Positions 3,530-61,509 of a stretch of 64,000 bases of DNA are shown piece by piece. The notes under the pieces are model-generated. The model was not told the origin of the DNA, made no database searches, and was given only the letters and a program-made list of their open reading frames with translations. Source of the DNA: an uncultured Chloroflexales bacterium (lineage in GTDB: Bacteria > Chloroflexota > Chloroflexia > Chloroflexales > Chloroflexaceae); contig CALANA010000114.1 in assembly GCA_937925925.1 (NCBI GenBank), positions 185 to 64,184 of the forward strand, written 5' to 3'. A program made the position numbers and the translations under genes. Within the stretch, counting starts at the first letter, position 1. Each line of letters starts with the position of its first letter.

Positions 3530-3670
3530 ACAGGATGTATGCGGTGGTATGGTCAGTTCGTCTTCTTTCGCCTGTGGCAGCGTGGAAACGTTGGAACGTT
3601 GGAACGTTGGAACATTCCGCTCTACCGAAGGTCAAAACTATATGATGATAGACGACCGCGTATGTCCTGT
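3530..3670. mobile_element. MITE-B copy B2 with 5-bp TSD aaatg
   Basis: TIRs acaggatgtatgcggt / accgcgtatgtcctgt. aaatg at 3525-3529 and 3671-3675. Internal 8-bp ggaacgtt x4 at 3584-3616. Confidence 0.85.
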
Positions 3671-3769: not shown

Positions 3770-4417
3770 TTGATGATCATCAACAACACCATTTCGACAT
3801 CTGCGGCGCGGCACTTCTATAACTGGTGGGCCTCCTGGCAAACCTGGGTAGACTACAGCGAGAGTCGTGCCCGGAAACGCGCCCTGGATTTATTGGCACC
3901 AGCCTCTGGTCAGCGCATACTCAACGCTGGTGTAGGCACTGGTCAGACACAGGCACATCTACAGGCAGCCGTGACACCCGCTGGTATGGTTGTAGGATTG
4001 GATCTCTCACCAGTGATGCTGCATCACACTCGCGTTCGTCTCCATACCCCGCTCTGTGAGGCCGATGTGCGCCATTTACCTTTCGCCCCGGCCAGTTTTG
4101 ACGGCGTTTTTTCTAGCTTCGTGCTTGACCTGCTTCCTTTTGACGATCTGGCAGGGTTGCTGCAAGATTTTCAACGTGTTCTCAAACCCGGTGGACGGAT
4201 CGTGCTGGTCTCGCTCACAGAAGGGATTAATGCCGCCAGCCGCCTGTCCATGGCTCTCTGGAAGCTGGTTTATCGTGTTAGCCCGATCGCCTGTGGTGGA
4301 TGCCGCCCGGTGCAACTGGCCGCACTGGTGAGCCAGGCCGGCTTTTGCCAGATCGTGCGCGAGGTGGTGGTACAACTGGGCATGCCCAGCGAGATCGTGG
4401 CCGCAACCCGTTGTTAG
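3770..4417 (+). CDS. Class I SAM-dependent methyltransferase
   Basis: 215 aa. Motif I ILNAGVGTGQ. Post-I acidic residue. LKPGGRIVLVS motif. Confidence 0.8.
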   Translation: MMIINNTISTSAARHFYNWWASWQTWVDYSESRARKRALDLLAPASGQRILNAGVGTGQTQAHLQAAVTPAGMVVGLDLSPVMLHHTRVRLHTPLCEADVRHLPFAPASFDGVFSSFVLDLLPFDDLAGLLQDFQRVLKPGGRIVLVSLTEGINAASRLSMALWKLVYRVSPIACGGCRPVQLAALVSQAGFCQIVREVVVQLGMPSEIVAATRC

Positions 4418-4424
4418 CGCCATT

Positions 4425-4460
4425 GCGTCACTCCTATAGCAAGCTTACATCATTGTGAAG
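4425..4460. repeat. Solo duplicate of the MITE-A left end
   Basis: gcgtcactcctatagcaagcttacatca(t)tgtgaag repeats the 4496-4532 sequence. Confidence 0.8.
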
Positions 4461-4505
4461 TTTCATGCGGTTTCGCCGACCTACGCCGCGTGGCGGCGTC
4501 ACTCC

Positions 4506-4618
4506 TATAGCAAGCTTACATCAGTTGTGAAGAATTGGAGTCCAGGCTTTAGCCTGGGGCTAGCTCCGTCCAGCGTCAAGCCTGGAATCTGGTGTACAAT
4601 TGGTATAGGCCTGCTAGA
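4506..4618. mobile_element. MITE-A copy A1
   Basis: TIRs tatagcaagcttacatcagttgtgaag / tgtacaattggtataggcctgcta. Internal gtccaggc...gcctgga hairpins. Confidence 0.8.
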
Positions 4619-4620
4619 AT
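4593..4620 (+). promoter_or_regulatory. MITE-A1-borne outward promoter-like site TGTACA-N16-TAGAAT
   Basis: -35 at 4593-4598 and -10 at 4615-4620. The lipoprotein gene ATG is at 4635. Confidence 0.4.
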
Positions 4621-4634
4621 ATTGAGCCATAGAG

Positions 4635-6059
4635 ATGAGAGAAACGACCGGTATTCACCGCTACCCGGCTGTGCCACGCTACTGGTGGCTGCTGCTCGTG
4701 TGTTTGTTGCTCCTGTCCGCCTGCACTGCCCCCGCCGATGGGCCAGATGCCAATCCGGTGGTTGGTGTAGACGATACGCACACACCCCTGCCAACGCTCG
4801 CGCCATGGACGCCCGTGCCCCAGACGCCCGTGCCGCAAGCGACTGCCACCATTGCTCCGTCACCCACGTCCCCACTGATGGCAACCTGGACGGCAGAACT
4901 GGAAGCGACCGTGAGCGCGGGCCGGCCACATCTGTCAACACCAGTCCTGACTGGTATGCCCTCATCTGGCGGTATTGATGGAGTCCAGGTGCTGCCCGTT
5001 CCATCTACAGGCAATGTTTCCCCGGCCTGGATCGTCCATACGCACGGCATGCGTGCCTTTGACTCTGCTGAGGATCACTACGTCGCCATCTACACCCGCA
5101 CTGGTGATACCTGGCAAGAGGCCTCGCGCTTTACCCTGTCTACCGCTGATTATCTCGATGTCCAGGGTGTTTCTGTGGCACACCTCGGTTCAGACGATTT
5201 TATCTGGATCGCGGTCGAAAGCGGGGTGGGCGCTCACGGGGGATGTTTTGACGTGCTGCGCTTTGACGGTCAGAGCCTCTTCAGCGATGCCGCCAGTTGC
5301 AACACCAGCCCCGGCGCGGGTGAAATCCGTGATCTGACCGGCGATGGCACGGCGACCGAGGTCGTTCTGAACGAGAGCGACAACTATGTCTTCTGTTATG
5401 CCTGTGGTGTGCGGCTGAAGCAGTTCAGGGTATTGCGCTGGAACGGAGCCGAAATGGTAGAAGTACAACTCCAGACCTTGCCTGAATCTGCGCCAGAGGC
5501 GGTACGCACACTGAACAACCGTGCCGTTGAACTGGCCCAGGCCGGGTTATGGAAGGATGCGCAGCAGACGATTGCAACCGTTCCGCAGCCGATTACCGAC
5601 GAAACAGTGGCCTGGAATATGCGGCTCATTGAGTTGCATGCCGCAGCTCGTGCCGATCAAGTGCAGCATGGAACCTATCCATTGCTGGAGCAGATCTTCT
5701 ATGGCGATTATACGGCGGCGCTGGAGGTTATGCGTTCATTCACGGTTGCAGAACTGTTTGCCTTCCCCAATCCGCTGATTAGTGACACGGTTGCCGAGGG
5801 CTGGGAAGGTGAGCTATCAGCCTGGATCGTGAACACAACCCTGCTGGCAATTCAGGCCCAACCCGATCTCGCCGCCGCCTTCTTTCTGCGCGGTTGGGCC
5901 ATTTATCTGCTTGACCCACGCGACCCGGCGGTTCTGGACAATCTCAAGCGGGCCGCACTGATCGATCCCCGCGAGCCACTCTTCCGCGACAGTGTGGCCT
6001 ATCTCGAAGAACGCCGCCGCACCGATGATGGGTTGCCGCCCATACCAGAGGACAGGTGA
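4635..6059 (+). CDS. Putative lipoprotein/secreted protein of unknown function (FG-GAP-like DLTGDG motif, helical C-terminal half)
   Basis: 474 aa. Signal peptide with lipobox-like LLLSAC. Pro/Thr-rich linker. No enzyme motif recognised. Confidence 0.6.
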   Translation: MRETTGIHRYPAVPRYWWLLLVCLLLLSACTAPADGPDANPVVGVDDTHTPLPTLAPWTPVPQTPVPQATATIAPSPTSPLMATWTAELEATVSAGRPHLSTPVLTGMPSSGGIDGVQVLPVPSTGNVSPAWIVHTHGMRAFDSAEDHYVAIYTRTGDTWQEASRFTLSTADYLDVQGVSVAHLGSDDFIWIAVESGVGAHGGCFDVLRFDGQSLFSDAASCNTSPGAGEIRDLTGDGTATEVVLNESDNYVFCYACGVRLKQFRVLRWNGAEMVEVQLQTLPESAPEAVRTLNNRAVELAQAGLWKDAQQTIATVPQPITDETVAWNMRLIELHAAARADQVQHGTYPLLEQIFYGDYTAALEVMRSFTVAELFAFPNPLISDTVAEGWEGELSAWIVNTTLLAIQAQPDLAAAFFLRGWAIYLLDPRDPAVLDNLKRAALIDPREPLFRDSVAYLEERRRTDDGLPPIPEDR

Positions 6060-7052: not shown

Positions 7053-7290
7053 TACCAATTTGACGTAGCCATTCTGCATCCGTTGGTTCGTCTGACGCTT
7101 ACTCCTACGGCAACGAGATGCCCCCTGGAAAAAGCTGTCGCGGGGCGGAGAGGCGTTGCATGCAACGCCCCTCCGCCGCCCCCCTGTGGGGGGGTGCGGG
7201 GGCCGCAGGCCCCCCCGCACCCCCGCCGCGACGCCGGTGCATTGGAGGACACATGGCACGACCATGCGGAAGGGCCACGGCGAAACGGTA
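7053..7290. mobile_element. MITE-C copy C1, 3-bp TSD tta
   Basis: TIRs taccaatttgacgtagccattctgcatcc / catgcggaagggccacggcgaaacggta. tta at 7050-7052 and 7291-7293. Cores ggcgttgcatgcaacgcc and gcgggggccgcaggccccc. Confidence 0.9.
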
Positions 7291-8265: not shown

Positions 8266-8272
8266 CAATGAT

Positions 8273-8383
8273 CTAGCAATCCTAAATGAGTTGTGAAGAC
8301 CGGAGTCCAGGATTGACGCTGGTCTTGCTCCGTCCAGGCTGAAGCCGCGACTCCACGGTGACCATGACCATAGGATCGCTATA
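8273..8383. mobile_element. MITE-A copy A2
   Basis: ctagcaatcctaaatgagttgtgaagaccggagtccagg ... ccataggatcgctata. It ends 2 nt from the aminotransferase stop codon. Confidence 0.8.
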
Positions 8384-9823: not shown

Positions 9824-10120
9824 GTCAGTGAACACGTCATGGTGCGCCTGGGAGGGTGGGCGTCCCCCTGGGAGGGTGGGCATCCCGCCCTCTGCACCTG
9901 GGCGGGCGGGCGTCTCGCCCTCTGCGCCTGGGGGAGGGCGTTCCGCCGCCAGGGAGGGAGGGTGTCTCGCCCTCTGCGGCAGGGAGGGAAGGCGTCTCGC
10001 CCTCTGCGGCAGGGAGGGAAGGCGTCCGCCAGGGAGGGCGGGCGTCTCGCCCTCTGCGGCAGGGAGGGAAGGCGTCCGCCAGGGAGGGCGGGCAGCGTGC
10101 CCTTGAGGGTGAACAGGTAC
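9824..10120. repeat. GC-rich D-type element D4 with internal degenerate tandem repeats
   Basis: gtcagtgaacacgtcatggtgcgcctggg ... reiterated gcgtctcgccctctgcggcagggagggaag units ... gggtgaacaggtac. It is flanked by similar about 16-bp direct repeats (ctgcattatagaggca at 9787 and ctgctataatagaggca at 10146). Confidence 0.75.
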
Positions 10121-11934: not shown

Positions 11935-12969
11935 ATGAAAACCGATATACCGCTCAAACGACTGACCCACTTGCGACCGGCCGATCTGTTGCTGCTGTTA
12001 GGTACACCTGAGGCTGAGGTTCTGAGTGTGGATACCTTACAATTGCCATCCAGTGCCACGAGTCTGGATACAGTGTTGCGACTGCGCCAACCGGATGGCA
12101 CCGAGTATTTGCATGTGATCGAATGGCAGGGGTATTACGACTTGCTCTTTCTCTGGCGTGTCCTCGGCTATCTCGCCTGGCTGGGGCAGAACCAGCCGGA
12201 ACGCCCGATCCTGGTGACATTAATTTATTTGAAACCCGATGATGATGTCGGTAACACCCTCACACAGCACCTGGCAGGACAACCCGGATGGACTGTCACC
12301 TTGCCCTGCATTCGTCTATGGCAAGAAGATGCGGCGTCCGCGCTCGCCAGTGGTCGTCCTGGATTAGCCGCACTCTGCCCATTGATGCACGGCGCGACCG
12401 ATAGCATGGTTGAACAGGCCGCCTCCTTGATTATCGATCAGGTTGCCCCACCTGTACAGAACGAATTGTTGGCGGCACTGGGCGTATTTTCCGCATCATT
12501 GATGGAAGTCACACGCTTTATGCGGCTCGTAACAAAGGAGCGACTTATGGCAACCGATCTCATTTCATATCTCTTAGAAGAAGAACGTGCAGAATGGGAA
12601 CAGGAAAAGGCCTCTCTCGAACAGGAAAAGGCCACCCTCGAACAGGAGCGACTCATAGCAACCGATCTTTTAGAAGAAGAACGTGCAGAATGGGAACAGC
12701 AAAAGGCCACTCTCGAACAGGAAAAGGCCACACTCGAACAAGAACTTGCAACTCAGAGCGTTTCACTTCAGGATGCGCTGGTGCGTCAGACATTGCAGCA
12801 AGGGGTAGAAGATGTTTTGATAGCGCGGTTTCCGCATGTTCCCATCACGGTCGTCAGGGATATTCGCCAGATTACGGATCTTACGCAGTTGCAACATCTG
12901 CTGGGAGCACTCGCTCAGGCACCCGATATGCAGAGCGCATTGCAACTGCTACGCGTGCAATCCAACTAA
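11935..12969 (+). CDS. PD-(D/E)XK (Rpn/YhgA-like) putative nuclease with coiled-coil repeat and DUF4351-like C-terminus
   Basis: N-terminal D...IEWQ pattern resembling PD-(D/E)XK. Internal duplicated EERAEWEQ(E/Q)KA(S/T)LEQEKATLEQE block. C-terminal helical tail. Family call is tentative. Confidence 0.5.
   Translation: MKTDIPLKRLTHLRPADLLLLLGTPEAEVLSVDTLQLPSSATSLDTVLRLRQPDGTEYLHVIEWQGYYDLLFLWRVLGYLAWLGQNQPERPILVTLIYLKPDDDVGNTLTQHLAGQPGWTVTLPCIRLWQEDAASALASGRPGLAALCPLMHGATDSMVEQAASLIIDQVAPPVQNELLAALGVFSASLMEVTRFMRLVTKERLMATDLISYLLEEERAEWEQEKASLEQEKATLEQERLIATDLLEEERAEWEQQKATLEQEKATLEQELATQSVSLQDALVRQTLQQGVEDVLIARFPHVPITVVRDIRQITDLTQLQHLLGALAQAPDMQSALQLLRVQSN
12547..12745 (+). repeat. In-frame imperfect tandem duplication (about 96-108 bp unit) inside the CDS
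   Basis: gcaaccgatct...ttagaagaagaacgtgcagaatgggaacag...ctcgaacaggaaaaggcca occurs twice. Confidence 0.8.
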
Positions 12970-12971
12970 GA

Positions 12972-13084
12972 TATAGCACTCCTCAACCAATTGTGCGGAA
13001 CCGAAGTCCAGGCTTTCGCCTGGACGGAGCAAGCCCCAGGCGAAAGCCTGGACTCTCATTTACGATTGGTACAGGCTTGCTATA
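12972..13084. mobile_element. MITE-A copy A3
   Basis: tatagcactcc...gaagtccaggctttcgcctggac...gattggtacaggcttgctata. TA on both flanks. It starts 3 nt after the upstream stop codon. Confidence 0.8.
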
Positions 13085-13198
13085 ACAGACATATGTGGTG
13101 ACTTGACGTCTATGCTCTTCTCGGCTATGGTAGTGTGGAAGAGTAGAGGTGAGCGGCCGCAAGCAAAAAAAAGCTACGGGCGACCGCGTAACTCCTGT
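13085..13198. mobile_element. MITE-B copy B4 (degenerate)
   Basis: acagacatatgtggtg ... gcgaccgcgtaactcctgt. Confidence 0.45.
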
Positions 13199-13217: not shown

Positions 13218-14201
13218 ATGCAAATGACCAGACGTGAACGACTGGCGGAAGCCGTCGCTGGCAACGAAACTGACCGTGCCCCCGTGGCGCTCTGGCGGCA
13301 TTTCCCGGTGGACGATGCCGATGCCGAGCAATTAGCGTTGTCGGTGCTGGCCTTCCAGCAGCAGTATGACTGGGATTTCATCAAGCTCACCCCGTTGAGC
13401 AACTACTCTATTGCCGACTGGGGCGGAACGGTCGCCTACCACGGGCATCCTGAAGGTACGAGCGACTACATCACGCCACCATTAATCACGGTCGCCACCG
13501 ATTGGGAGCGCTTACAACCGCTAAATGTCTACGCCGGGGCGATGGGTCAGCAACTGGACTGTATTCGTCGCTTGCGCGAGCTGGCTGGCCCGGATATACC
13601 GATTATCGAAACCGTCTTTAACCCGCTTTCGCAAGTGAAGCGTCTGGTAGCAAAAGGAGCCGAGATTGTCCATCTTCGGCGTTATCCACAGCAAGTGCGT
13701 GCCGCGCTGGAGGTAATCACTACGACCACCATCGACTTTGTCACCGCAGCGTTGGAAGCTGGCGCAGACGGGATCTTCTATGCCATTCAGCATGCCCGTG
13801 CCGATCTGCTCAGTGTGGACGAATATCGGGAGTACTTGCAGCCGCTGGATCTGCGCATTCTGGAAGCTGCTCGCCACGGTACGTTTAATTTGCTGCATCT
13901 GCACGGCCTTCACACCTACTTTGATCTGGTAGCCGATTATCCGGTTCACGCCTTGAATTGGCACGACCGCGAAACCGGCCCCACGTTGGCCGCGGGTGCG
14001 CAGCGGTTCACCGGGTTGGTCGTGGGTGGCCTCAGCCAGGAAGATATAGTAACCGGTAATCCTACCAGCATTGGGCAACTGGTGCAGACGGCACTGACCG
14101 AAATGGGCGGACGGCGGGTGTGTCTATCAACGGGCTGTGTTTTGCCCACGGTTGCACCCTGGGGCAACATTCGTGCCCTGCGAGCAGCCGTCGAACGTTA
14201 A
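13218..14201 (+). CDS. Uroporphyrinogen decarboxylase (URO-D) family protein (MtaA/CmuA-like)
   Basis: 327 aa. N-terminal RRERLAEAVAGNETDRAPVALWRHF pattern and overall length are typical of URO-D-like proteins. Confidence 0.7.
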   Translation: MQMTRRERLAEAVAGNETDRAPVALWRHFPVDDADAEQLALSVLAFQQQYDWDFIKLTPLSNYSIADWGGTVAYHGHPEGTSDYITPPLITVATDWERLQPLNVYAGAMGQQLDCIRRLRELAGPDIPIIETVFNPLSQVKRLVAKGAEIVHLRRYPQQVRAALEVITTTTIDFVTAALEAGADGIFYAIQHARADLLSVDEYREYLQPLDLRILEAARHGTFNLLHLHGLHTYFDLVADYPVHALNWHDRETGPTLAAGAQRFTGLVVGGLSQEDIVTGNPTSIGQLVQTALTEMGGRRVCLSTGCVLPTVAPWGNIRALRAAVER

Positions 14202-18402: not shown

Positions 18403-18535
18403 CTTTATATACTATCCGTTATGATCGTATGATAGCGTTCCACACTAAATGTGACGTGGGTATCAAGATTGACACTGGTAACAGCACTACAATCACATAT
18501 GCAGTATAGCGACCTCTTCCCATTCCGTCAACTCT

Positions 18536-18696
18536 CTAGCAATCCTCCGGTGCTTAACAACTGATTTGCACGAGGTACGCGGTAGCGGTGTCAATCAGCC
18601 TTTTCGCCTGCGGCAGCTTCAGAAGTACTGCTCTGCGCAGGCGAAAGACGTTTTGTTTGAGTGAACGCGTACGTCCTGTGATGTAGGATTGCTATA
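18536..18696. mobile_element. Minimal MITE-A (TIR pair) interrupted by MITE-B copy B6
   Basis: tagcaatcctccggtgcttaacaactgat [B6] atgtaggattgctata. Confidence 0.6.
18568..18679. mobile_element. MITE-B copy B6 (nested in a MITE-A TIR pair)
   Basis: gcacgaggtacgcggtagc ... ttttcgcctgcggcag ... ctctgcgcaggcgaaag ... gaacgcgtacgtcctgt. Confidence 0.8.
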
Positions 18697-24422: not shown

Positions 24423-24530
24423 GTAAACGTTCCCTTTTGGGAGAACGGGCAGCCTGCCCGCGCATGCGTGACGGAGAGAGGGACGCCCGCGCTTCCAGGC
24501 GTGCGCGTTCCGCCGAGTCTGAACGGCTAC
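24423..24530. mobile_element. D-type element D1
   Basis: gtaaacgttcccttttgggagaacgggcagcctgcccgcgcatgcg...gggacgcccgcgcttccaggcg...ctgaacggctac. Confidence 0.7.
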
Positions 24531-25817: not shown

Positions 25818-25999
25818 GTAATTGTTCACTCTTCTCTTGGGAGCGCGGGCACGCTGCCCGTGCATGCGTGCTGGCGGGTGGGACGCCCGCGCTCCCAGGC
25901 GACTGTGCATGCTGGCGGGCGTCCCGCCCGCGCTCCCAGGCGACTGTGCGTGTTGGCGGGCGAGACGCCCGCGCTCCCAGGCGCACCATGAACGCTGAC
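25818..25999. mobile_element. D-type element D2 with about 44-bp internal triplication
   Basis: gtaattgttcactcttctcttgggagcgcgggcacgctgcccgtgcatgcg. The cgcccgcgctcccaggcg unit occurs three times. It ends in catgaacgctgac. Confidence 0.75.
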
Positions 26000-29650: not shown

Positions 29651-29764
29651 GGTACGCATTCCCTTTTCTCCTGAGAGCGCAGGCATCTTGCCCGTGCATG
29701 CGCGACGGAGGGTGGGACGCCCGCGCTCCCAGGCGTGCGCGTTCCCCCGCGTGGGAACAGGCAC
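29651..29764. mobile_element. D-type element D3
   Basis: ggtacgcattcccttttctcctgagagcgcaggcatcttgcccgtgcatgcg...gggacgcccgcgctcccaggcgtgcgcgttcc...gggaacaggcac. Colinear with D1. Confidence 0.7.
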
Positions 29765-29929: not shown

Positions 29930-30046
29930 GTAACCGTTCAGGGGACGTTCGCCAGCGGGGGTGGCGGGGGCCGCAGGCCCCCGCGCAACCCCGGGAACCT
30001 CCGGGCCGGGTCGTGCCCCGCCCAACCACCCCACTTGAACGGTTAC
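29930..30046. mobile_element. MITE-F copy F1, 8-bp TSD agatctgc
   Basis: TIRs gtaaccgttcag / ttgaacggttac. agatctgc at 29922-29929 and 30047-30054. Core gcgggggccgcaggcccccgc. Confidence 0.9.
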
Positions 30047-32178: not shown

Positions 32179-32294
32179 TAGCGCAAGCCTATCCCAATGT
32201 GTTACATTGGAGTCTCGGCTTCAGCCTGGACAGAGCGAGATCCCGGCGAAAGCCAGGAATCAGGTGTTTCATACCTGATGTAGGTTTGCTCTAT
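32179..32294. mobile_element. MITE-A copy A4
   Basis: tagcgcaagcctatcc...ggagtctcggcttcagcctggac...gatgtaggtttgctcta. Confidence 0.7.
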
Positions 32295-32315: not shown

Positions 32316-32433
32316 GTACCCGTTCAGCGGAACGTTCGCCAGCGGGGGATGCGGGGGCCTGCGGCCCCCGCGAAACCCTTAGAACCTCCTGGAGCGGCAC
32401 TGCTCCTCCAAACCAACCCCCCTGAACGGTTAC
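32316..32433. mobile_element. MITE-F copy F2, 9-bp TSD aacgatacc
   Basis: gtacccgttcag ... ctgaacggttac. aacgatacc at 32307-32315 and 32434-32442. Confidence 0.92.
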
Positions 32434-32576: not shown

Positions 32577-32692
32577 TATAGCAATTCTTCATGACATGAG
32601 TTGTGAAGACCGGAGTCCCGGCTCGACGCTGGGAGCGCTCCGCCCAGCGTCAAACCTGGATTACCGTTCACAATTGGAATAGGATTGCTATA
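32577..32692. mobile_element. MITE-A copy A5
   Basis: tatagcaattcttcatgacatgagttgtgaagaccggagtcc...ttcacaattggaataggattgctata. Confidence 0.85.
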
Positions 32693-32694
32693 AT
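32667..32694 (+). promoter_or_regulatory. MITE-A5-borne promoter-like site TTCACA-N16-TATAAT
   Basis: -35 at 32667-32672 and -10 at 32689-32694. No gene lies immediately downstream. Confidence 0.3.
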
Positions 32695-32924: not shown

Positions 32925-33090
32925 TATGGCAATTCTATATGCGTGGTGAAGACCGGGAGTGCGGGTTTGAGCCGGGACGGAGCGTTCGCCCGGCTACAAG
33001 CCGGGACTCCAAGGCCCCAGGCGGTGGTGAAGACCGGGCGTGCGGGCTTGAGCCGGGACTCCAATGCACCATCGGTATAGGCTTGCTATA
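32925..33090. mobile_element. MITE-A copy A6 with internal duplication
   Basis: tatggcaattctatatgcgtggtgaagaccggg... The ggtggtgaagaccggg.gtgcggg.ttgagccgggac unit occurs twice. It ends in ggtataggcttgctata. Confidence 0.75.
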
Positions 33091-34277: not shown

Positions 34278-35477
34278 TCACGTTGTCATGGGACGGGAGC
34301 GGAGCAGGTGCAACAAAAACTGTGGTCGTAACAGCACCGACATATCAGTCATGCCAAAACAGGTCTGGATCAGTGCATCGACTACGGGCTGGCTGGATCT
34401 ATCGCCGCCAAAGATGCGGTTAAACAACGGCATATGGCCGGCCAGGTAATGTGCCAGGGTCATGATCTGAAACAACTGACGAAAGTGGGCATTCAATTGT
34501 TGCTCATACCGCTGAAGCCGGGCCAGGGTTGGCGTTCCTGTTCCCAGGACGGTGGTAATAACCTGAGCCGCGATCTGCCCTGATTCGAGTGCGTAGTCAA
34601 TGCCCTCGCCGGTGAAGGGATTGACCAGCCCGATGGCTTCACCAACGCCCAGCATACCCGGCCATCGTTTTTGCGCAGTCAAGAAATCAACGCGGATGGG
34701 ATAACTCTTCATCACTGCCACAGGTTGCGCCTCCCGCAGCACGCGCCTGAGTCGTGGATGCTGGCGCGTGAGTGCGTCCAGCGCGACCCGCGCTGAGACC
34801 GGCCAGCGGCCACTGTACCATACTCCGACATTGGCACTCTGTGGCCCGGTTGGAAAAAGCCAGGCATAGCCCGGCAGCGCCACCTGATTTAAATACAACT
34901 CAAGGTGTGGATCGAGCGGCGGGAGATGACGATAATAGCGTCGGGCTGCGACGCTGAACCGTGGTCGCTGTGGCAGCATACCGGATGCCTTCAGCAAGCC
35001 GGTTGAAGCACCTGTCGCCAGCACGACCAGCGCCGACCTGACGTCCTGATCATGAACCGTGACTCCAACCACACGGTTGTCAGTCAGGAGCAACCGCTGG
35101 GCATGCCCCACTCGGAACGTGGCCCCGCTGTCAATGGCATGTTGCTGAAGGATGTGATCAAACCGGTAACGCGGAATAACCAGCGTGCGATGTGGCAAAC
35201 CAGCCAGTCCGGTCACCGCTGTCTCGGCACACCCGCCATTGGGGGCATAGAGGCGAATGGCTGGTGCGTGATGAGCCTGGTGGTCAACCTGTTCCAGGAT
35301 GCCCATATGGTGCAAAATGGCCTGTGCCCGTGGGCTTAAACAGTCGCCACAGGTCTTATCGCGTGGAAATGTTGCCTTGTCAACCAGCAACACATCCATT
35401 CCGGCCCGCGCCAGGAAGCTGGCCGTCGCACTTCCGGCCGGCCCGGCCCCGACGACGATCACATCGTGTTGTTGCAT
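34278..35477 (-). CDS. Geranylgeranyl reductase family FAD-dependent oxidoreductase
   Basis: DVIVVGAGPAGSATASFLARAGMDVLLVDKATFPRDKTCGD N-terminus is typical of the family. Confidence 0.85.
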   Translation of the reverse strand: MQQHDVIVVGAGPAGSATASFLARAGMDVLLVDKATFPRDKTCGDCLSPRAQAILHHMGILEQVDHQAHHAPAIRLYAPNGGCAETAVTGLAGLPHRTLVIPRYRFDHILQQHAIDSGATFRVGHAQRLLLTDNRVVGVTVHDQDVRSALVVLATGASTGLLKASGMLPQRPRFSVAARRYYRHLPPLDPHLELYLNQVALPGYAWLFPTGPQSANVGVWYSGRWPVSARVALDALTRQHPRLRRVLREAQPVAVMKSYPIRVDFLTAQKRWPGMLGVGEAIGLVNPFTGEGIDYALESGQIAAQVITTVLGTGTPTLARLQRYEQQLNAHFRQLFQIMTLAHYLAGHMPLFNRIFGGDRSSQPVVDALIQTCFGMTDMSVLLRPQFLLHLLRSRPMTT

Positions 35478-35492
35478 GTCGTGCTCACTCCC

Positions 35493-36779
35493 TTATGCGC
35501 GCGGCGGCCACAGCCGACCGTGGGCGATTTCACCCCCGGACGGCTGCTCACGTACCTCAACCAGCAGCTTGTCCGCGTCGTCCATCAGCCGCCAGTTCGT
35601 GACACCGATCTGTTCTGAAATGAAAAAATGGCGTACTGCCGGCGTTGCGGGGCGCAAAAACGGAATCTGGTGCAGTATCGTGTTCTCCAGTTCCAGTTGC
35701 AATCCTGGTTTATGCGCCACAATCACTCGCTTGCGTGGCAACCGAACGCGAATATGGGGATCAAGGTAGGTATCTTCCCACACCAGATGCAACTGATCGG
35801 CGCTGAAGCGTGTGTAGCGTTGCTCGGCCCCATCATGCCACAACACTTCGAGATACCGCAACGTCTGGCTACGCTGATATGTTTGCAGCACGATCCCCTG
35901 CTGCCGTTGGGCATCGGGCACAAACAAAAAATCCCAGCCATGCAACGGCAACGGGTTGAGACCAAAGCTATGCTCGTAATAGCCATTGCCATGATCCCAG
36001 CGTGCGCAACAGGTATCACGGGCAACCAGGCGCGCCAATGCGGGTGAGGCAATTGTCGGAAAAGATTGTCCTGCAATCTGTGCCAGAAATTCCGGGGTCA
36101 TCGTGATCGCGCCAGAAGTGCGCGCAACGGGGGATGGATTGTAGACCACCCAGTGGGTACCGGGCAGATAGCCCACGTCCTCGGCATATGTAGGCGCAAT
36201 CGCTGTTCCATCCAGTCCATAATGCTCCAGTCTGACCTCCAGGCCACGCTCATGGCGGAGCAGCAGACGATGCTGTTGCGGTGCCAGGTGTTCACAGACC
36301 AGTTGGACACCCTGCCCTTCCGCCCGTACCATTGCGGCGTCTATGCCCTCAAACGTCAGTTGATCGGTGGGGAACAGATGCATCCAGCAGATCTGGGGCC
36401 AATCGCGCATGGTGTGCGACTGCGCGGCGAGCTGTTCTGGCAGATCTAGCATACCGGCCAGAATCACGAGCAAGCCCCCCTCGGCAAGCTGTTTGAAGCG
36501 TTCGGCGGGATTAAATAGCGCCATACCCACAATCCCATGAAAAGCGGGCGTAATCACACTAAAATAGCGCCACTCAATAAAAGCGGCAGAAATCCAGCGT
36601 CGGAGAGTACGCTGGTACCAGCCTGGTGCGTTTGGTGTCGTTCCAGCGGCCCGCAGCGTGGCATGATTGCCATCAAAGAGTGTGCCGGCATAGATCGGAA
36701 AGCGCCATCCAGGGGATGCTTGCTGAATGTGGGCCAACAGATCAGGATTAGTACGCGGTAAAAACGGTATTTCTTTCAT
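35493..36779 (-). CDS. Hypothetical protein, possibly CrtC/AttH/tocopherol-cyclase-like fold (very tentative)
   Basis: 428 aa. The IEWRYFSV motif is reminiscent of EWWY/EGWYF motifs. It lies 15 nt upstream of the reductase gene on the same strand. Confidence 0.55.
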   Translation of the reverse strand: MKEIPFLPRTNPDLLAHIQQASPGWRFPIYAGTLFDGNHATLRAAGTTPNAPGWYQRTLRRWISAAFIEWRYFSVITPAFHGIVGMALFNPAERFKQLAEGGLLVILAGMLDLPEQLAAQSHTMRDWPQICWMHLFPTDQLTFEGIDAAMVRAEGQGVQLVCEHLAPQQHRLLLRHERGLEVRLEHYGLDGTAIAPTYAEDVGYLPGTHWVVYNPSPVARTSGAITMTPEFLAQIAGQSFPTIASPALARLVARDTCCARWDHGNGYYEHSFGLNPLPLHGWDFLFVPDAQRQQGIVLQTYQRSQTLRYLEVLWHDGAEQRYTRFSADQLHLVWEDTYLDPHIRVRLPRKRVIVAHKPGLQLELENTILHQIPFLRPATPAVRHFFISEQIGVTNWRLMDDADKLLVEVREQPSGGEIAHGRLWPPRA

Positions 36780-36800
36780 GATAACCTGCTTTATTGGAGA

Positions 36801-36828
36801 TCTATAGTGATCCTACATCAGTTGTGAA
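36801..36828 (-). promoter_or_regulatory. MITE-A7-borne outward promoter-like site (minus strand TTCACA-N16-TATAGA)
   Basis: -35 is the complement of 36823-36828. -10 is the complement of 36801-36806. The start codon of the 35493-36779 gene is 22 nt downstream. Confidence 0.4.
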
Positions 36829-36915
36829 GCACCGGAGGCCCGGCTTGACGCTGGCAGCGCTTCGTCCAGGCTAAAGCCTGGACTCCAGATTTACAATTAT
36901 AATAGGATTGCTATA
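36803..36915. mobile_element. MITE-A copy A7
   Basis: tatagtgatcctacatcagttgtgaagcaccgg...gcctggactccagatttacaattataataggattgctata. TA flanks. Confidence 0.85.
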
Positions 36916-37020
36916 TGTCTGCCAACGTATACTGTCAGACGTTCTATGTTTCCAGTTTGTCGGTTCGTCGGAACGACTCGGGTTCTTTCCAGCAATCTTC
37001 ATTGCCTCAAGGCGTTACTA

Positions 37021-37180
37021 AAGGACATACGCGGTCGCTCAAACAGAATGTCTTTTTTGCCCCTGCCAGACTGGTGTCTCATTTTGCGCCGAAGGTGCAA
37101 AATGAGACACCAAAAAACGTCGTTACCACGCTGCTGCAGGCGAAAAGGCGAGTTGATCAATATTCACCGCGTGCGTCCTA
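37021..37180. mobile_element. MITE-B copy B9
   Basis: aaggacatacgcggtcgc ... hairpin 37073-37111 ... gctgctgcaggcgaaaaggcga ... caccgcgtgcgtcct. Confidence 0.8.
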
Positions 37181-37274
37181 TCAATATGGTGTAGAGTTCT
37201 GTCTTCAGCGAAGCAGGATGTTCCTGTCGTTTTACCGTAAAACTTCGCCTATAGCAGCGAGCAGTAATCCTGGG

Positions 37275-37302
37275 GAGAGACGTTGCGTGCAACGTCTCTC
37301 CT
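37275..37302. repeat. Solo palindromic core related to the MITE-C/G GTTGCATGCAAC module
   Basis: ggagagacgttgcgtgcaacgtctctcc, 11 nt downstream of the deacetylase stop codon. No T-tract follows. Confidence 0.7.
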
Positions 37303-37312
37303 CACATTCGGT

Positions 37313-42934: not shown

Positions 42935-44050
42935 TCAATACTGTTGTTCAATCCGCGTGATCATCTCTTCGATCACCTCAAAGCCAGGTGGATTAACCAC
43001 GTTCACCAGGTTATCAGCCAGGTTCAGGTTATGCTGGCGCACAAACTGTTGGAAATAGTCGATATTCGTGTTGCGGTAGCCGTGTTCAATCGCCAGGCGC
43101 TCCAATTCATTGGCTGCTGCCCACACCTGCGCATCCTGTTGCAGATCGGGGTCTTTGCGTAACAGCTTGCCTAAGCGATCACCGCGCTCTGTTAAGGAGA
43201 CCAGCACGTGCCAGGTATAGAGCGTGGGATCGGGATACAGCAGCACCATCTCTGGACGAATACCACCGCCAGTCACTTGTTGATAAATGAACTGGGACTC
43301 ATAGATCATGACCAGCGGAGCCTTGCCCATCCCCATCGTCAGATAGTCTTGAAACGGCCCCGCTGACGATCCCGCCTGAAATCCCTGCTTCAAAAACAGA
43401 TCGGTCATCAGCGGCATAATAGGATCGATCTGGCGCTCATTTTGCACAATATTGTTGTTATTTGCCACATAGCTTGCCAGCGACAGATACATCGCCGCCG
43501 AGTTGGAGGTGCGCACATCGGTCGATGAAATCATGATCGTCTTGTTCACATTGTAGACCGTGTTGGCCTGCAAGTCTGACCAGCGCACTTCCCTGGCAAA
43601 CAGGTCGAGGAATTGCTGCATGTCAAACATGAAGATTCCACCTTGATCCACCACCACTCCATTTGTCATCAGCACCTCGGCAATGGGTTGCCAGGAGGCA
43701 ATTACCATGGGCGTAAAAAAGATTTCATACGAATTGTTGACATTGTACGTATCGCGGATTTTTTCCGCACCGGGAATACCGGCTGGAAAGCCAAAATCAT
43801 ACTCGCCGGCTGCCAGTCGTGTGGCGATCAAACGTGATCCGGCCGTCTCGATCTGCACATCCAGGCCCGCCTTGTGGAATGCGGCAATCACCTGTGGATC
43901 CTGGAAGAAATCCCGCTTTTCGGAACCGATCAAGCCACGCACCGTGACAATATTGCGCTGCGTCAACTGGTTGCGCGCCGAAACAAAAATGGCCCCGACC
44001 ACTCCCAGTACCAGCACCAGCAACAAGGTGGGGCCAAGTATTTTCTTCAT
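42935..44050 (-). CDS. Membrane-anchored periplasmic-binding-protein-like protein, paralogue 1
   Basis: Start set at MKKILGP, preceded by an AGGAG-like SD. Single N-terminal TM. Roughly three quarters of positions are identical by eye to the 48291-49403 product. Confidence 0.65.
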   Translation of the reverse strand: MKKILGPTLLLVLVLGVVGAIFVSARNQLTQRNIVTVRGLIGSEKRDFFQDPQVIAAFHKAGLDVQIETAGSRLIATRLAAGEYDFGFPAGIPGAEKIRDTYNVNNSYEIFFTPMVIASWQPIAEVLMTNGVVVDQGGIFMFDMQQFLDLFAREVRWSDLQANTVYNVNKTIMISSTDVRTSNSAAMYLSLASYVANNNNIVQNERQIDPIMPLMTDLFLKQGFQAGSSAGPFQDYLTMGMGKAPLVMIYESQFIYQQVTGGGIRPEMVLLYPDPTLYTWHVLVSLTERGDRLGKLLRKDPDLQQDAQVWAAANELERLAIEHGYRNTNIDYFQQFVRQHNLNLADNLVNVVNPPGFEVIEEMITRIEQQY

Positions 44051-44166
44051 TAGTGACACTCCTGGATCTCCCATATGTTCAAAGACACCGTAGTGCCAGG
44101 CTGCTGCAAAACACAACGGCTGACCGCTGTGTCACAGCAATCAGCCGTTAGCCATTACGCTCCATC

Positions 44167-47899: not shown

Positions 47900-47961
47900 A
47901 CGAAACTCCTTTTGTGTTCAGATCGGCTTCTATAAGCGGTGATTAGTATAACGCAGGAACG

Positions 47962-48273
47962 ACAGCAATCCTACATGAGTTGTGAAAAAACTGGAGTCCA
48001 GGCTTTAGCCTGGGTCTCGTCCCGTCGAGGCTTGCGCCTGGGTCTTGCCCCTTCCAGGTTCAAGCCTGGACGCCGGTGCTGCCAGGTTCAAGTCTGGACG
48101 CCGGTGCTGCCAGGTTCAAGTCTGGACGCCGGTGCTGCCAGGTTCAAGTCTGGGCGCCGGTGCTGCCAGGTTCAAGTCTGGACGCCGGTGCTGCCAGGTT
48201 CAAGTCTGGACGCCGGTGCTGCCAGGTTCAAGCCTGGACGCCGATGCTACACAACAGATTTAGGATCGCTATA
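47962..48273. mobile_element. MITE-A copy A8 expanded by an internal tandem array
   Basis: acagcaatcctacatgagttgtgaaaaaactggagtccagg ... tttaggatcgctata. Confidence 0.8.
48054..48249. repeat. 28-bp tandem repeat x7 (ccaggttcaagtctggacgccggtgctg)
   Basis: Copies start at 48054, 48082, 48110, 48138, 48166, 48194 and 48222. They are head-to-tail with no spacers. Confidence 0.95.
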
Positions 48274-48290
48274 CAGTACTCCATCAGCAC

Positions 48291-49403
48291 TCAATATTGC
48301 TGTTCAATCCGCTTAATCATTTCTTCAATGATTTCAAAAGTAGGCGGATCGATCACATTGACCAGGTTTTCGGCCAGTACCAAATTATGCTCTTTCGTAA
48401 GTTGCTGAAAATAGGCCACATTCGTATTGCGGTAGCCATGCTTAATTGCGAGACGCTCCAGTTCATTGGCGGCTTCCCACACACGACTATCTTCCTGAAG
48501 ATCGGCGTCTTTGCGCAGTAGTTTCCCCAGTCGATCCCCTTTGGCATTCAAGGCAACCAGGACATGCCAGGTGTAAATCGTGGGGTCAGGATAGATCAAC
48601 ACCATCTCGGATCGAATGCCATTGTCCAGCGTCTGTTGATAAATAAATTGTGACTCGTAGATCATCACCAGTGGTGCCTTTCCCATCCCCATCGTCAGAT
48701 AATCGTTGAATGGTGCCGCCGATGAGCTACCGGTAAAGCCCTGTTTGAGAAAGAGATCCTGGACGAGGGGCATAATCCTATCGATTTGCTCACGATTCTG
48801 TACAATATTGTTGTCGTTGGCGACATAACTGGCGAGTGACAAATACATCGCCGCCGAGTTGGAGGTACGTGGGTCAGTAGAAGAGATGAGGACGCTACGG
48901 TTTACATTATAGACGCTGTTATCCCGAAACGCATCCCACCGTTTCCCTTCTGCAAAAAGATCCAGGAATTTTTTCATGTCAAGCATATAATAGCCACCGC
49001 GATCCACCGCGATCCCGTTCGCTACCAATACTTGCGCAATCGGCTGCCAGGAGGCAATGGTCATCGGCGTGAAAAAGACATCGTAAGAATTAGTAGTCTT
49101 GTGTTCCTGGCGAATCTTCTCGGCAGCAGGGATACCACCCGGAAAGCCAAAATCGTAGGCCTCTGACAACTGCATGGAAATCTGTCGTGAGCCGGCCGTT
49201 TCAGCCTGCACATCCAGTCCGGCCTTCCGAAAGGCGGCAAGAACCTCAGGATCCTGGAAGAAATCGCGCTTTTCTGAACCGACTAAACCGCGGACGGTGA
49301 CAACCTGTTGCTGGGCAAATTGTTCGCCAGCAGAAACGAAGATGGCTCCGGCGACACCCAGAACCAGCACTACCAATAGTAACGGCCCGAGGACTTTCTT
49401 CAT
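48291..49403 (-). CDS. Membrane-anchored periplasmic-binding-protein-like protein, paralogue 2
   Basis: 370 aa. Colinear with the 42935-44050 product along its whole length. Confidence 0.65.
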   Translation of the reverse strand: MKKVLGPLLLVVLVLGVAGAIFVSAGEQFAQQQVVTVRGLVGSEKRDFFQDPEVLAAFRKAGLDVQAETAGSRQISMQLSEAYDFGFPGGIPAAEKIRQEHKTTNSYDVFFTPMTIASWQPIAQVLVANGIAVDRGGYYMLDMKKFLDLFAEGKRWDAFRDNSVYNVNRSVLISSTDPRTSNSAAMYLSLASYVANDNNIVQNREQIDRIMPLVQDLFLKQGFTGSSSAAPFNDYLTMGMGKAPLVMIYESQFIYQQTLDNGIRSEMVLIYPDPTIYTWHVLVALNAKGDRLGKLLRKDADLQEDSRVWEAANELERLAIKHGYRNTNVAYFQQLTKEHNLVLAENLVNVIDPPTFEIIEEMIKRIEQQY

Positions 49404-49700: not shown

Positions 49701-49891
49701 ACAGGACATACATGGTCGTCGATCACTCCATAGGGTTCACCTCTGGCAGAATGGTTTTCTCCTGCAGCAGCACGGTAGATTATATTTCGCCCAGACGTTT
49801 CGCCTAGAGCGAAACGTCTGGAGCAACCTGCCCCTTCCACGCTTCCACAGGCCAGAAACACCGTCAGTTCAGGCGACCGCGTATGTCCTGT
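49701..49891. mobile_element. MITE-B copy B11
   Basis: acaggacatacatggtcg ... hairpin 49791-49821 ... gcgaccgcgtatgtcctgt. It directly abuts MITE-A9. Confidence 0.8.
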
Positions 49892-49895
49892 TGTC

Positions 49896-50004
49896 GCCAT
49901 CCTCCATTCGTTGTGAAGCACCAGCGTCCAGCTCGACGCTGGCAGCGCTCCGTCCAGGCTCACGCCTGGACTCCAGGGTTACAAGGATAAGAGGATTGCT
50001 CTAT
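49896..50004. mobile_element. MITE-A copy A9
   Basis: ...cattcgttgtgaagcaccagcgtccagctcgacgctgg...gcctggactccagggttacaaggataagaggattgctcta. Confidence 0.7.
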
Positions 50005-52908: not shown

Positions 52909-53143
52909 TACCGTTTCGACGTGACCCTTCCGCATGTTCTTGCCATTCGTCTTCCAACAAGACTGCGTCGCGGCGGGGGTGCGGGGGCCGGAGGCCCCCG
53001 CCCATGTGGGTATGTCGGAGGAGGGGCGTTGCATGCAACGCCGCTACGCGCCCCGTGCAATCTCTTTCCAGGGGAAGTCTCGTGGTCATATGAGCAAGCG
53101 TAAGACGGATCACAGGATGCGGAAGGGCGACGTCAAATTGGTA
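52909..53143. mobile_element. MITE-C copy C2, 3-bp TSD taa (the left copy is the mrr stop codon)
   Basis: taccgtttcgacgtgacccttccgcatg ... gatgcggaagggcgacgtcaaattggta. taa at 52906-52908 and 53144-53146. Confidence 0.9.
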
Positions 53144-57439: not shown

Positions 57440-57698
57440 TATCGTTTCGACTTGAACATTCCGCCTCCCACGAGACTGTGTCGCGGCGGGGGGTATGGGG
57501 GTGGGCCGCCCATGTTCCTTTTCTGGTGCGGAGCGGTGAAGCCGCGCCCTCCCTGCGGGGGGGCGGCGTAGGGGTGTTGCATGCAACGCATCCAACGCAT
57601 CTATCCCCCGCGACATCGCTTTCCACGGACAGGCGCGTTGGCGTATGCGCAAGCGTCAGACTGACCAACGGATGCGGAAGGCCGCAGTCAAACTGGTA
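57440..57698. mobile_element. MITE-C copy C3 (the left flank taa is the stomatin stop codon; the right flank is tga)
   Basis: tatcgtttcgacttgaacattccgc ... gatgcggaaggccgcagtcaaactggta. taa at 57437-57439 and tga at 57699-57701. Confidence 0.85.
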
Positions 57699-60338: not shown

Positions 60339-60595
60339 TATAGTAATCCTATCTCAGTTGTGAAGACTGGAGTCCAGGCAAAAGCCTGGTCTCGCCCTAC
60401 ACCGAGACTTCGTCTCGTTAAGGGCGCAGGGGCCGCAGGCTCCCACACATGTTCTCTTTCTAAAGGAGATTTCGGCGGAGGGGCGTTGCATGCAAGATCC
60501 CTCCGTCCCTCGCAATCTCTTTCCAGGGGAAGTCTCGTTGGAGTACTCGTTCTGTCCAGGCTTTCACCTGGACTCCTTGCAATAGGCTTGCTATA
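60339..60595. mobile_element. MITE-A copy A10 carrying a nested MITE-G
   Basis: tatagtaatcctatctcagttgtgaagactggagtccaggcaaaagcctgg [insert] tgtccaggctttcacctggactccttgcaataggcttgctata. Confidence 0.8.
60396..60549. mobile_element. MITE-G copy G2 nested inside MITE-A10
   Basis: cctacaccgagacttcgtctcg ... ggcggaggggcgttgcatgcaag ... ccaggggaagtctcgttggagtact. Confidence 0.7.
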
Positions 60596-60636
60596 GTGTT
60601 ACTGCTCATATCAAACAGCTAGACTGGAACCTGATT

Positions 60637-61509
60637 ATGTTTCGACGTTCTACGGATTTGCGTTCACTGCTGATAGGCCTGCTCAGTATCTATCTCTTTG
60701 TGTATCCGTGGGGCATACTCCTGATAGCGCTGGATCGTGTCCCGGCCTGGGGTGTTGGGATGGGGGCGATTCTGTTGATCCTCCAGGGGACGATGATGGG
60801 CCTGTGGCTAACGGCTCGCTATCGCTGGCGCGGCACTCTAGCTGCGCTCCTGATCTTGCTCATCTCCTGGTGGGCTGAACATCTGGGTGAGACCAGTGGC
60901 TTTCCCTTCGGTCAGTATACCTATACCGAGGTTCTTGCACCAAAAATTATACATGTGGTGCCACTGGCGATACCCTTTGCCTGGCTCCTTGTCATTCCGG
61001 CAGCAGTAGGTATTACCGATCGGCTGATGGCCTTCGACCCTGGTACCTCTGAGACCTCGCTGGGCAATGTTGTTCTTACAACGCTGGCAGCCGCATCGTT
61101 TGCGACACTGCTTGATGTTACGATTGAGCCGGTTGCTGTCCATGTCAATCGGTACTGGATCTGGCACGATAGTGGTGGCTATTACGGCGTGCCGCTTTCT
61201 AATTTTGCGGCCTGGTGGACGATCAGCGCCCTCCTGGTCTGGATTTTGGTATGGTTGCGCCAGAATGCGCATACATCGGTCTGGCCACCGTTAACGCCAG
61301 TGGTGCGGATGGAATGGCTACCGCAGTTACTGTATCTGCTCAATCTGATCATGTTTGTGGTGATTAACTTGAGCAACCGCCATCTGGCCGCTGCCAGCAT
61401 CGGGTTGCTGGTGCTGGTCTATCTGGCCTTTGATCGGCTAGAACCAGGCATGGTACGCTGGGTGATGGGCGGGATCGAACGCAGTGATACCCGGCAGGGA
61501 CGGGCATAA
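60637..61509 (+). CDS. Carotenoid biosynthesis membrane protein (Caroten_synth/CruF-like hydratase family)
   Basis: Polytopic membrane protein. The EHLGETSGFPFGQYTYTEVLAPKI...VPLAIPFAW motif resembles the family signature. Confidence 0.65.
   Translation: MFRRSTDLRSLLIGLLSIYLFVYPWGILLIALDRVPAWGVGMGAILLILQGTMMGLWLTARYRWRGTLAALLILLISWWAEHLGETSGFPFGQYTYTEVLAPKIIHVVPLAIPFAWLLVIPAAVGITDRLMAFDPGTSETSLGNVVLTTLAAASFATLLDVTIEPVAVHVNRYWIWHDSGGYYGVPLSNFAAWWTISALLVWILVWLRQNAHTSVWPPLTPVVRMEWLPQLLYLLNLIMFVVINLSNRHLAAASIGLLVLVYLAFDRLEPGMVRWVMGGIERSDTRQGRA

Follow-up and report, generated by a model that had tools for sequence, protein, structure and literature searches.

Insertion sequences (IS) such as IS1, IS2, IS257 and ISAba1 make hybrid promoters, in which an outward-facing -35 hexamer in the terminal repeat pairs with a -10 hexamer in the flanking DNA. 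Among miniature inverted-repeat transposable elements (MITEs), the Correia repeat enclosed elements (CREE) of Neisseria do so in two ways: in the 'Black promoter' the element contributes a -35 and part of a -10, which some insertion sites complete, and the 'Snyder' type joins a host -35 to a -10 inside the element (PMC2649163). Two outward sigma-70-like promoters have also been predicted from the sequence of MITEAba12 of Acinetobacter baumannii (PMC6382973). Here we describe MITE-A, a MITE family present in 11 copies in a 64-kb stretch of DNA from an uncultured Chloroflexales bacterium (the window). An earlier note on this DNA had proposed that the element acts as a portable bidirectional promoter. 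The hexamer observation behind that proposal is real and largely accurate, and the promoter-like pattern of the ends is a real property of the MITE-A family. MITE-A by itself does not carry a complete promoter; the decisive T of the -10 is supplied by the host, and at this sample size we see no sign of selection for promoter function, either in the family or in the places where it has inserted. The portable bidirectional promoter may be regarded as a reasonable hypothesis of a known kind.

MITE-A shares much of its architecture with the Correia elements. Like those MITEs of about 100-150 bp it occurs at very high density, duplicates a TA target, has terminal inverted repeats (TIRs) that start TATAG(C) and would give a transcript that folds into a long hairpin. 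Its ends, with a -35 and a partial -10 that the site completes, reproduce the Black promoter as a sequence pattern. In contrast, the sequences are unrelated beyond TATAGC: the Correia consensus TATAG[CT]GGATTAACAAAAA(C/T)C(A/G)G(G/T)AC was not matched anywhere in the window when up to three mismatches were allowed, and homology to Correia elements was rejected on that ground. Because the architecture is common to both and the sequences are unrelated, MITE-A works like CREE but is not one. It differs further in its host phylum, Chloroflexota rather than Neisseria, and in that no integration host factor site was identified in it.

As in the IS-made hybrid promoters, a -35 near the tip of MITE-A is combined with host sequence, so that activity would depend on the insertion site. 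Unlike those ISs, MITE-A is non-coding and 111 nt long, and it gives the -35, a TG and the first four -10 bases, the host giving the other two. MITEAba12 has other TIRs, another parent IS family and promoters that are wholly internal. The promoter activity of Correia elements is proven and transcriptomes are at hand for checking the MITEAba12 prediction, whereas MITE-A is known here from sequence alone. With MITEs derived from IS630/Tc1-mariner elements it shares TA duplication, short TIRs with two conserved blocks and insertion polymorphism between close relatives. In the literature on Chloroflexus relatives we found no description of MITEs and no study of transcription start sites or mapped promoters. 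What is newly documented here is a very dense, previously undescribed family of TA-targeting MITEs; the mechanism itself is already known from the Correia elements, and the promoter-like property follows from the TIR sequence.

A dense family of TA-targeting elements

Proteins encoded in the window are 52-55% identical to Chloroflexus and Oscillochloris proteins and 86-97% identical to those of several recent assemblies, and 20% of the window is intergenic by a crude gene call. The 11 MITE-A copies correspond to about one per 6 kb, and the TIR tip was matched 23 times in the window against 3.3 expected. Canonical copies measure 102-116 nt from end to end and are without coding capacity, while longer copies have other repeats nested in them or are internally duplicated. 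Both ends consist of TIRs about 27 nt long (TATAGCAAtCCTAyATCAGTTGTGAAG). Rfam and tRNA scans of the window gave no match, indicating that the repeats are not a known RNA family.

Related loci compared with the window are labeled L006, L010, L027 and so forth, L007 and L008 being the 96% strain. The insertion of copy A7 is seen directly by comparison with empty sites. The filled site reads GGCAGAcA-TA-[111 nt]-TA-GATCTCC and the empty site GGCAGATATAGATCTCC; in four assemblies the sequence is ...CGCTGGCAGATATAGATCTCC..., where the window has ...CGTTGGCAGACA-TA-[TAGCAATCC...GGATCACTA]-TA-GATCTCC.... Filled and empty sites differ by exactly 113 nt, which is the 111-nt element plus the duplicated TA, and the TA target-site duplication is therefore proven. 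Seven further contigs also show an 82-nt empty spacer at this site, giving 11 other assemblies in all with an identical empty site. TA is found at 93-98% of the profiled MITE-A ends. Genomes with about 88-91% DNA identity to the window have empty sites for A7, A1 and A3, and about 21 kb of one such relative holds one weak end match (L034), against four copies in the corresponding window DNA. The filled/empty differences and the near-absence of copies in a close relative indicate recent activity, and the empty sites in related genomes identify MITE-A as a genuine MITE with TA target duplication, being short, non-coding, bounded by TIRs, multicopy and polymorphic between relatives.

Among GTDB species representatives, the left-end motif was present in one Chloroflexaceae metagenome-assembled genome (MAG) only (6 loci); metagenomes yielded 16 loci with the MITE-A pattern, and a scan of viral contigs yielded none. 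In the window and the loci up to L033, about 400 kb of related DNA, we found no pair of MITE-A-type ends that lay 1-2 kb apart around a transposase-like open reading frame (ORF). The features of MITE-A are typical of IS630/Tc1-mariner-type non-autonomous elements, the superfamily being assigned by the TA duplication alone because no partner with matching TIRs was found in that DNA.

Promoter-like ends and the contribution of the host

The ends analyzed came from the window, the Chloroflexaceae MAG and metagenome contigs. We profiled 43 non-redundant ends and scored 46-50, the larger total being 46 profile-found ends plus 4 that the profile had missed. In the 43 ends, a first TIR block at tip positions 1-13 (TA-TAGCAAtCCTA; TATAGCAAtCCTA) is mostly 84-98% conserved and a second at positions 20-26 (TTGTGAA) is 58-93% conserved, with a variable stretch (44-67%) between them. 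Read outward, a 'left-type' end gives TTCACA(A) and a 'right-type' end TTTACA/TGTACA (TKTACA) or worse. This -35-like block is followed by a 16-nt spacer closing in TGC, the TGn of an extended -10, and then by TATA, which is made up of the last TA of the element and the duplicated target TA; positions 5 and 6 of the -10 are host bases. The contribution of the element therefore amounts to five of six -35 positions, a near-optimal spacer, TGn and four of the six -10 bases. The TG, which the earlier note had missed, precedes TATA at about 40 of 46 ends. Allowing up to two mismatches, we counted 13 instances of TTCACA-N13-TGCTATA in the window, where 1.4 were expected.

The four hexamer pairs reported by the earlier note, at A1, A5, A7 and A3, are all present, and its account of TATAnn as terminal TA, flanking TA and two host bases is correct, the A7 empty site showing the TA duplication. 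Its statement that each TIR contains TTCACA does not hold: the exact hexamer stands at 16 nt in 6 of 21 window ends, mostly 'left-type', and 'right-type' ends have TTTACA, TGTACA or worse. The idea of outward promoters at both termini stands in part, since both consensus ends hold a -35-like hexamer, TG and TATA, but the final T of the -10 comes from the host and is at background frequency.

To score the ends we required at least 4/6 matches in the -35, at least 4/6 in the -10, a total of at least 9/12, A and T as the second and sixth -10 bases, respectively, and a spacing of 16-18 nt, a rule that is the Escherichia coli sigma-70 consensus and may not be that of Chloroflexales sigma factors. 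It was passed by 22% of the element ends and by 1.3% of arbitrary intergenic positions. The ends are thus about 16 times likelier to be promoter-like than arbitrary intergenic positions, because consensus ends hold the -35-like hexamer, TGn and TATA. We then asked what the host adds. T stands at -10 position 6 in 9 of 43 ends, which is its background frequency, and A at position 5 in 10 of 43, which is unbiased. The rule was passed by 10 of 46 ends, or 11 of 50 with the four extra ends, one of which passes; when the same ends were joined to random intergenic TA flanks, 21% passed. With 22% passing where 21% was expected, selection on host flanks was rejected for a sample of this size. The genome-scale question of flanks and positions was approximated with these 50 non-redundant ends, the source genome being absent from the GTDB representatives.

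The positions of the elements were compared with the 570 intergenic TA sites of the window. Of these, 12.8% are at most 25 nt from a start codon that they face, and the shares for 45 and 150 nt are 21.6% and 51.6%. For MITE-A the counts are 2, 3 and 6 of 11 elements. The two elements within 25 nt compare with 1.4 expected (binomial P for at least 2 of 11, about 0.42 by hand arithmetic), and enrichment near start codons was rejected at this sample size. The over-representation of ends before start codons that the earlier note had proposed to test for was not found within the window. Nor was there a bias of 'left-type' or 'right-type' ends towards the downstream gene (3:3 in the tandem spacers of the window), and several ends aim at the 3' ends of convergent or upstream genes, 2-20 nt away (8383, 12972, 18696 and 48273).

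These counts bear on the idea that MITE-A is an adapted portable bidirectional promoter, most of whose ends are active and drive, among others, the lipoprotein-like gene next to A1 and the unit of a 428-aa protein gene and a geranylgeranyl reductase (GGR) gene next to A7, with gene-front copies retained for that purpose. The consensus -35, 16-nt spacer, TGn and TATA at both ends speak for it, as do the behavior of the Correia elements (PMC2649163) and a complete -10 at three of six ends less than 50 nt from a start codon. However, complete sites are as frequent as random flanks predict, distances to start codons fit chance, gene-facing ends are evenly split and many ends point at the 3' ends of convergent genes. 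In addition, A7 has TATAGA and A3 TATAAC, and the -10 of A1 has degraded to TAGAGT (8/12) in the 96% strain. We consider adaptation of this kind quite unlikely.

Copies in front of genes and the readings they allow

Copy A1 was inserted about 16 nt upstream of the ATG of the lipoprotein-like gene. Its outward site is the outer 26 nt of the right TIR plus two host bases; the -35, the TG and TAGA derive from the element and the duplicated target, and AT derives from the host. The pair passes the promoter rule with TG, and 14 nt lie between its -10 and the ATG at 4635. TAGAAT preceded by TG would make a credible -10. The -35, TGTACA, matches at four of six positions only, and a transcript from the A1 tip would have a leader of about 7 nt and no Shine-Dalgarno sequence. 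Orthologues of the lipoprotein gene keep the ATG and the upstream CATAGAG, and a Pfam search with the gene gave no match. Before the insertion, with A1 and the partial duplicate beside it removed, about 35 nt separated the methyltransferase stop codon from the lipoprotein ATG; the empty site in L010 reads ...GCGTCAGTCTGTTATTGAGCTATAGAAATG, with no element.

The partial duplicate immediately precedes the complete A1 and is kept in the 96% strain; it could be what is left of another insertion into the same TA, or have arisen by local duplication. The methyltransferase gene is present in the window and the 96% strain and missing from two relatives (L009 9820-9862 and L010 3600-3625), in which only its last few dozen bases are left. 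The lipoprotein orthologues of these two relatives are 86-87% identical and stand divergent from an amidase gene.

At A7, the hexamers noted before are present and 21 nt lie between the -10 and the ATG at 36779, but TATAGA is without the final T and fails the rule. TATAGA was already there in the empty site (TA-TA-GA), and the insertion therefore merely re-creates it. A better site, with a host -35 and a -10 inside the right TIR, points through A7 towards the 428-aa gene and might be an alternative source of transcription. It resembles the Snyder type of the Correia elements, except that its internal -10 lies outside the first six bases. In the relatives the two-gene unit stands 82 nt downstream of a co-directional polysaccharide-deacetylase gene. 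The spacer (36780-37312) measures 533 nt in the window against those 82 nt, and about 340 nt of the gain consists of other repeat families.

The earlier note had stressed that two copies sit directly in front of genes. A1 and A7 do adjoin start codons, but this number is close to the chance expectation given above, and nothing shows that they sit there for promoter reasons. Both lie in what were short spacers (about 35 and 82 nt) between co-directional genes, so that read-through is an equal alternative as the source of transcription; in spacers so short, any insertion would come to lie in front of the downstream gene. A consensus scan of the empty spacers, in L027 for the A7 site and in L010 for the A1 site, found nothing promoter-like. 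Before the insertions, the lipoprotein gene and the 428-aa/GGR unit were therefore probably co-transcribed with their upstream neighbors, and the insertions did not visibly split a recognizable promoter. The same promoterless spacers also fit an adapted portable promoter, as does the growth of the A7 spacer, which is full of structured repeats that might impede read-through, so that a new promoter would be needed. Read-through after insertion is possible, and MITE-A would then be an mRNA hairpin of -40 to -62 kcal/mol.

Such a hairpin is central to another explanation, in which the resemblance to a promoter is incidental, the ends are silent and any effects are post-transcriptional, the hairpin of about 50 bp acting as an RNase III site, a stabilizer or a partial terminator. 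The elements fold with z-scores of -2.8 to -8.7, A3 contains a terminator-like hairpin, both gene-proximal copies occupy former short spacers of co-directional genes, and Correia elements are documented to be processed by RNase III (PMC2649163). The lack of the conserved G in the -35 TTCACA, a spacer of 16 instead of 17 nt and the short leader expected from the A1 tip also agree with silent ends. In contrast, by E. coli rules an extended -10 of TGnTATAAT or TAGAAT with a 5/6 -35 is usually active, and outward promoters in MITE ends are shown or predicted for Correia elements and MITEAba12 (PMC2649163; PMC6382973). We regard silence of the ends as rather doubtful.

The account that we favor, and hold to be probable with some reserve, is that MITE-A ends are prone to form promoters without having been selected for it; A1 would then be possibly active and A7 probably inactive. 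MITE-A would be a TA-duplicating non-autonomous element that recently multiplied in this Chloroflexales lineage. Its two TIR blocks are most simply seen as two transposase contact sites, and read outward the same blocks would by coincidence make up three quarters of a sigma-70 promoter, which would make each insertion promoter-prone. A consensus-complete hybrid promoter would form only if T were the second of the host bases that follow the duplicated TA, as is the case at about one insertion in five, the chance frequency. Complete ends (A1, A5, 60595 and L006) are probably able to start transcription, judging by the Correia elements and by E. coli promoter rules. At incomplete ends (A7 and A3), the neighboring gene is likelier to be transcribed from elsewhere, by read-through from the upstream co-directional gene or, at A7, from the site that joins a host -35 to an internal -10.

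Several points weigh against this account. The conserved inner block stands exactly at the -35 position, with a near-optimal spacer and TGn in addition, a triple coincidence that is somewhat unlikely a priori (of the order of 1% per TATA-ended TIR). The transposase-binding role of the inner block is one that we infer, and the promoter rules are assumed to be those of Chloroflexales sigma factors. Finally, the -10 is complete in three of the six non-redundant ends less than 50 nt from the faced start codon (A1, 60595 and L006), against 21% expected; the binomial p is about 0.11, and the sample is too small to decide. This excess is a hint of the kind that would be seen if insertions displacing a native promoter persisted only by supplying another.

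That hint leads to a bolder picture, in which the MITE-A burst, at about one copy per 6 kb, scatters functional outward promoters. T-completed ends would be active sigma-A promoters, insertions less than 50 nt from a start codon would be more likely to persist if they complete a -10 (3/6 against 21%), and the element would be a major ongoing source of regulatory rewiring between strains, including the uncoupling of the former operons methyltransferase-lipoprotein and deacetylase-428aa-GGR. That all of this is true together we consider doubtful. If the ends are active, MITE-A insertions alone would set close strains apart in the transcription of many genes, and the family would be a Chloroflexota counterpart to the Correia system, offering a natural set of filled and empty loci for the study of repeat-made promoters.

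Other copies and neighboring repeats

The coordinates of the features are collected below.

Positions of MITE-A copies, promoter-like sites and adjoining genes in the window
Feature	Position	Strand	Description
Methyltransferase gene	3770..4417	+	Co-directional, upstream of lipoprotein gene; candidate read-through source
Partial duplicate beside A1	4425..4505		GCGTCACTCC + TATAGCAAGCTTACATCATTGTGAAG: 10 nt of host flank and first 26 nt of A1 left TIR, then 35 nt unrelated
MITE-A copy A1	4506..4618 (113 nt)		TIRs; left TA at 4506-4507, right copy of duplicated TA reads GA at 4617-4618; empty in L010; present in 96% strain (L007/L008)
A1 outward site	4593..4620	+	TGTACA-16-(TGc)TAGAAT, 9/12, extended -10 TG; listed by promoter scan
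Lipoprotein-like gene	4635..6059	+	Lipoprotein-type signal peptide (MRETTGIHRYPAVPRYWWLLLVCLLLLSAC), LLSAC lipobox
MITE-A copy	8272..8383		Right tip 2 nt from stop codon of convergent aminotransferase gene
MITE-A copy A3	12972..13084		Right end 13059-13086, TTTACG-16-TATAAC; without final -10 T; rule failed; not listed by promoter scan
Host promoter-like site	13103-13131		TTGACG-17-TATGGT, between A3 and URO-D gene at 13218; better than A3 site
MITE-A ends around nested B-family repeat	18535..18696		
MITE-A copy	32179..32293		Degenerate tips
MITE-A copy A5	32577..32692		Right end 32667-32694, TTCACA-16-TATAAT, 11/12, with TG; best match in window
MITE-A copy	32925..33090		Internal duplication; right end TATAGC, 105 nt from SEC-C-motif gene
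Two-gene unit	34278..36779	-	428-aa gene of unknown function (35493-36779) and flavin adenine dinucleotide (FAD)-dependent geranylgeranyl-reductase-like gene (34278-35477)
A7 outward site	36828..36801	-	TTCACA-16-TATAGA; without final -10 T; not listed by promoter scan
MITE-A copy A7	36803..36915		TA + 111-nt element + TA; lineage-specific insertion, by filled-versus-empty alignment
Alternative site at A7	36925..36896	-	TTGGCA-18-TATAAT, 11/12; host -35, -10 inside right TIR
MITE-A copy	47961..48273		Internal 28-nt tandem array; left end 61 nt from TelA start; degenerate tip TGTCGT
MITE-A copy	49890..50003		Degenerate left tip
MITE-A long copy	60339..60595		Nested repeats; right end 60569-60597, TGGACT-17-(TGc)TATAGT; left end TTCACA-18-TATAGT

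The remaining pairs named by the earlier note fared unevenly. That of A5 passes the rule, but its right end faces a 230-nt AT-rich spacer and another MITE, and the gene beyond is 503 nt away. That of A3 is present upstream of the URO-D-like gene as described, but TATAAC fails the rule and a better host site lies in between. The 344-aa ORF of unknown function upstream of A3 (11935-12969) shows a 432-nt indel (12064-12496) relative to the 96% strain (L007 16818-17419). In L009 (15696-15762) this ORF and A3 are both missing, and the URO-D gene stands 65 nt after a kinase/WD40 gene.

Two further promoter-like ends near genes were found beyond the four pairs. The right end of the long copy (60569-60597) lies 39 nt before a carotenoid-biosynthesis gene at 60637. 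The orthologue of this copy in L030-L032 is 90 nt long and has TATGGT; a clean empty site was not found among the loci compared, L030-L032 carrying the element and L033 differing in sequence there. The second is at L006 167-279, from MAG H113_106 and also found in metagenome contigs (L016 and L019), where the right end reads TTTACC-16-(TGt)TATATT. It has a complete -10, and 19 nt further on, with GGAG between, is the ATG of a gene for an OmpR-type response regulator (301-1119).

The tandem array at 47995-48276 consists of 8-9 units of 28 nt (CTGCCAGGTTCAAGTCTGGACGCCGGTG) derived from the internal hairpin module of the copy that contains it. The orthologous copy (L030 1140-1340) measures 201 nt against 313 nt, exactly four units fewer, and unit number therefore varies between strains. 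The gene at 48291-49403, which lies between this copy and the one at 49890-50003, is a paralogue of that at 42935-44116 (about 72% nucleotide identity); neither has a Pfam match.

Copies of a second MITE-like family, each about 60 nt long, with CAGGACGTACGCGGT... at the ends and GCCTTTTCGCCTGCGGCAGC as the core, occur at 3611, 6189, 8206, 18342, 31122, 37124, 44366, 49636, 56514 and 60225. Several of its copies lie about 10-250 nt from MITE-A elements, and one is nested in MITE-A at 18535-18696; L009 (20949-21005) has a 57-nt hairpin of that type at the same site, without A ends. Further GC-rich palindromic or tandem intergenic repeat families, for example, GGAGGGGCGTTGCATGCAACGCCCCTCC and GGGGGTGCGGGGGCCGCAGGCCCCCGCACCCC, are found at 7139-7225, 29957-29993, 32344-32380, 37266-37309, 52974-53055, 57560-57603 and 60469-60512, and more such repeats occur at 9850-10093, 24438-24524, 25838-25987 and 29672-29758.

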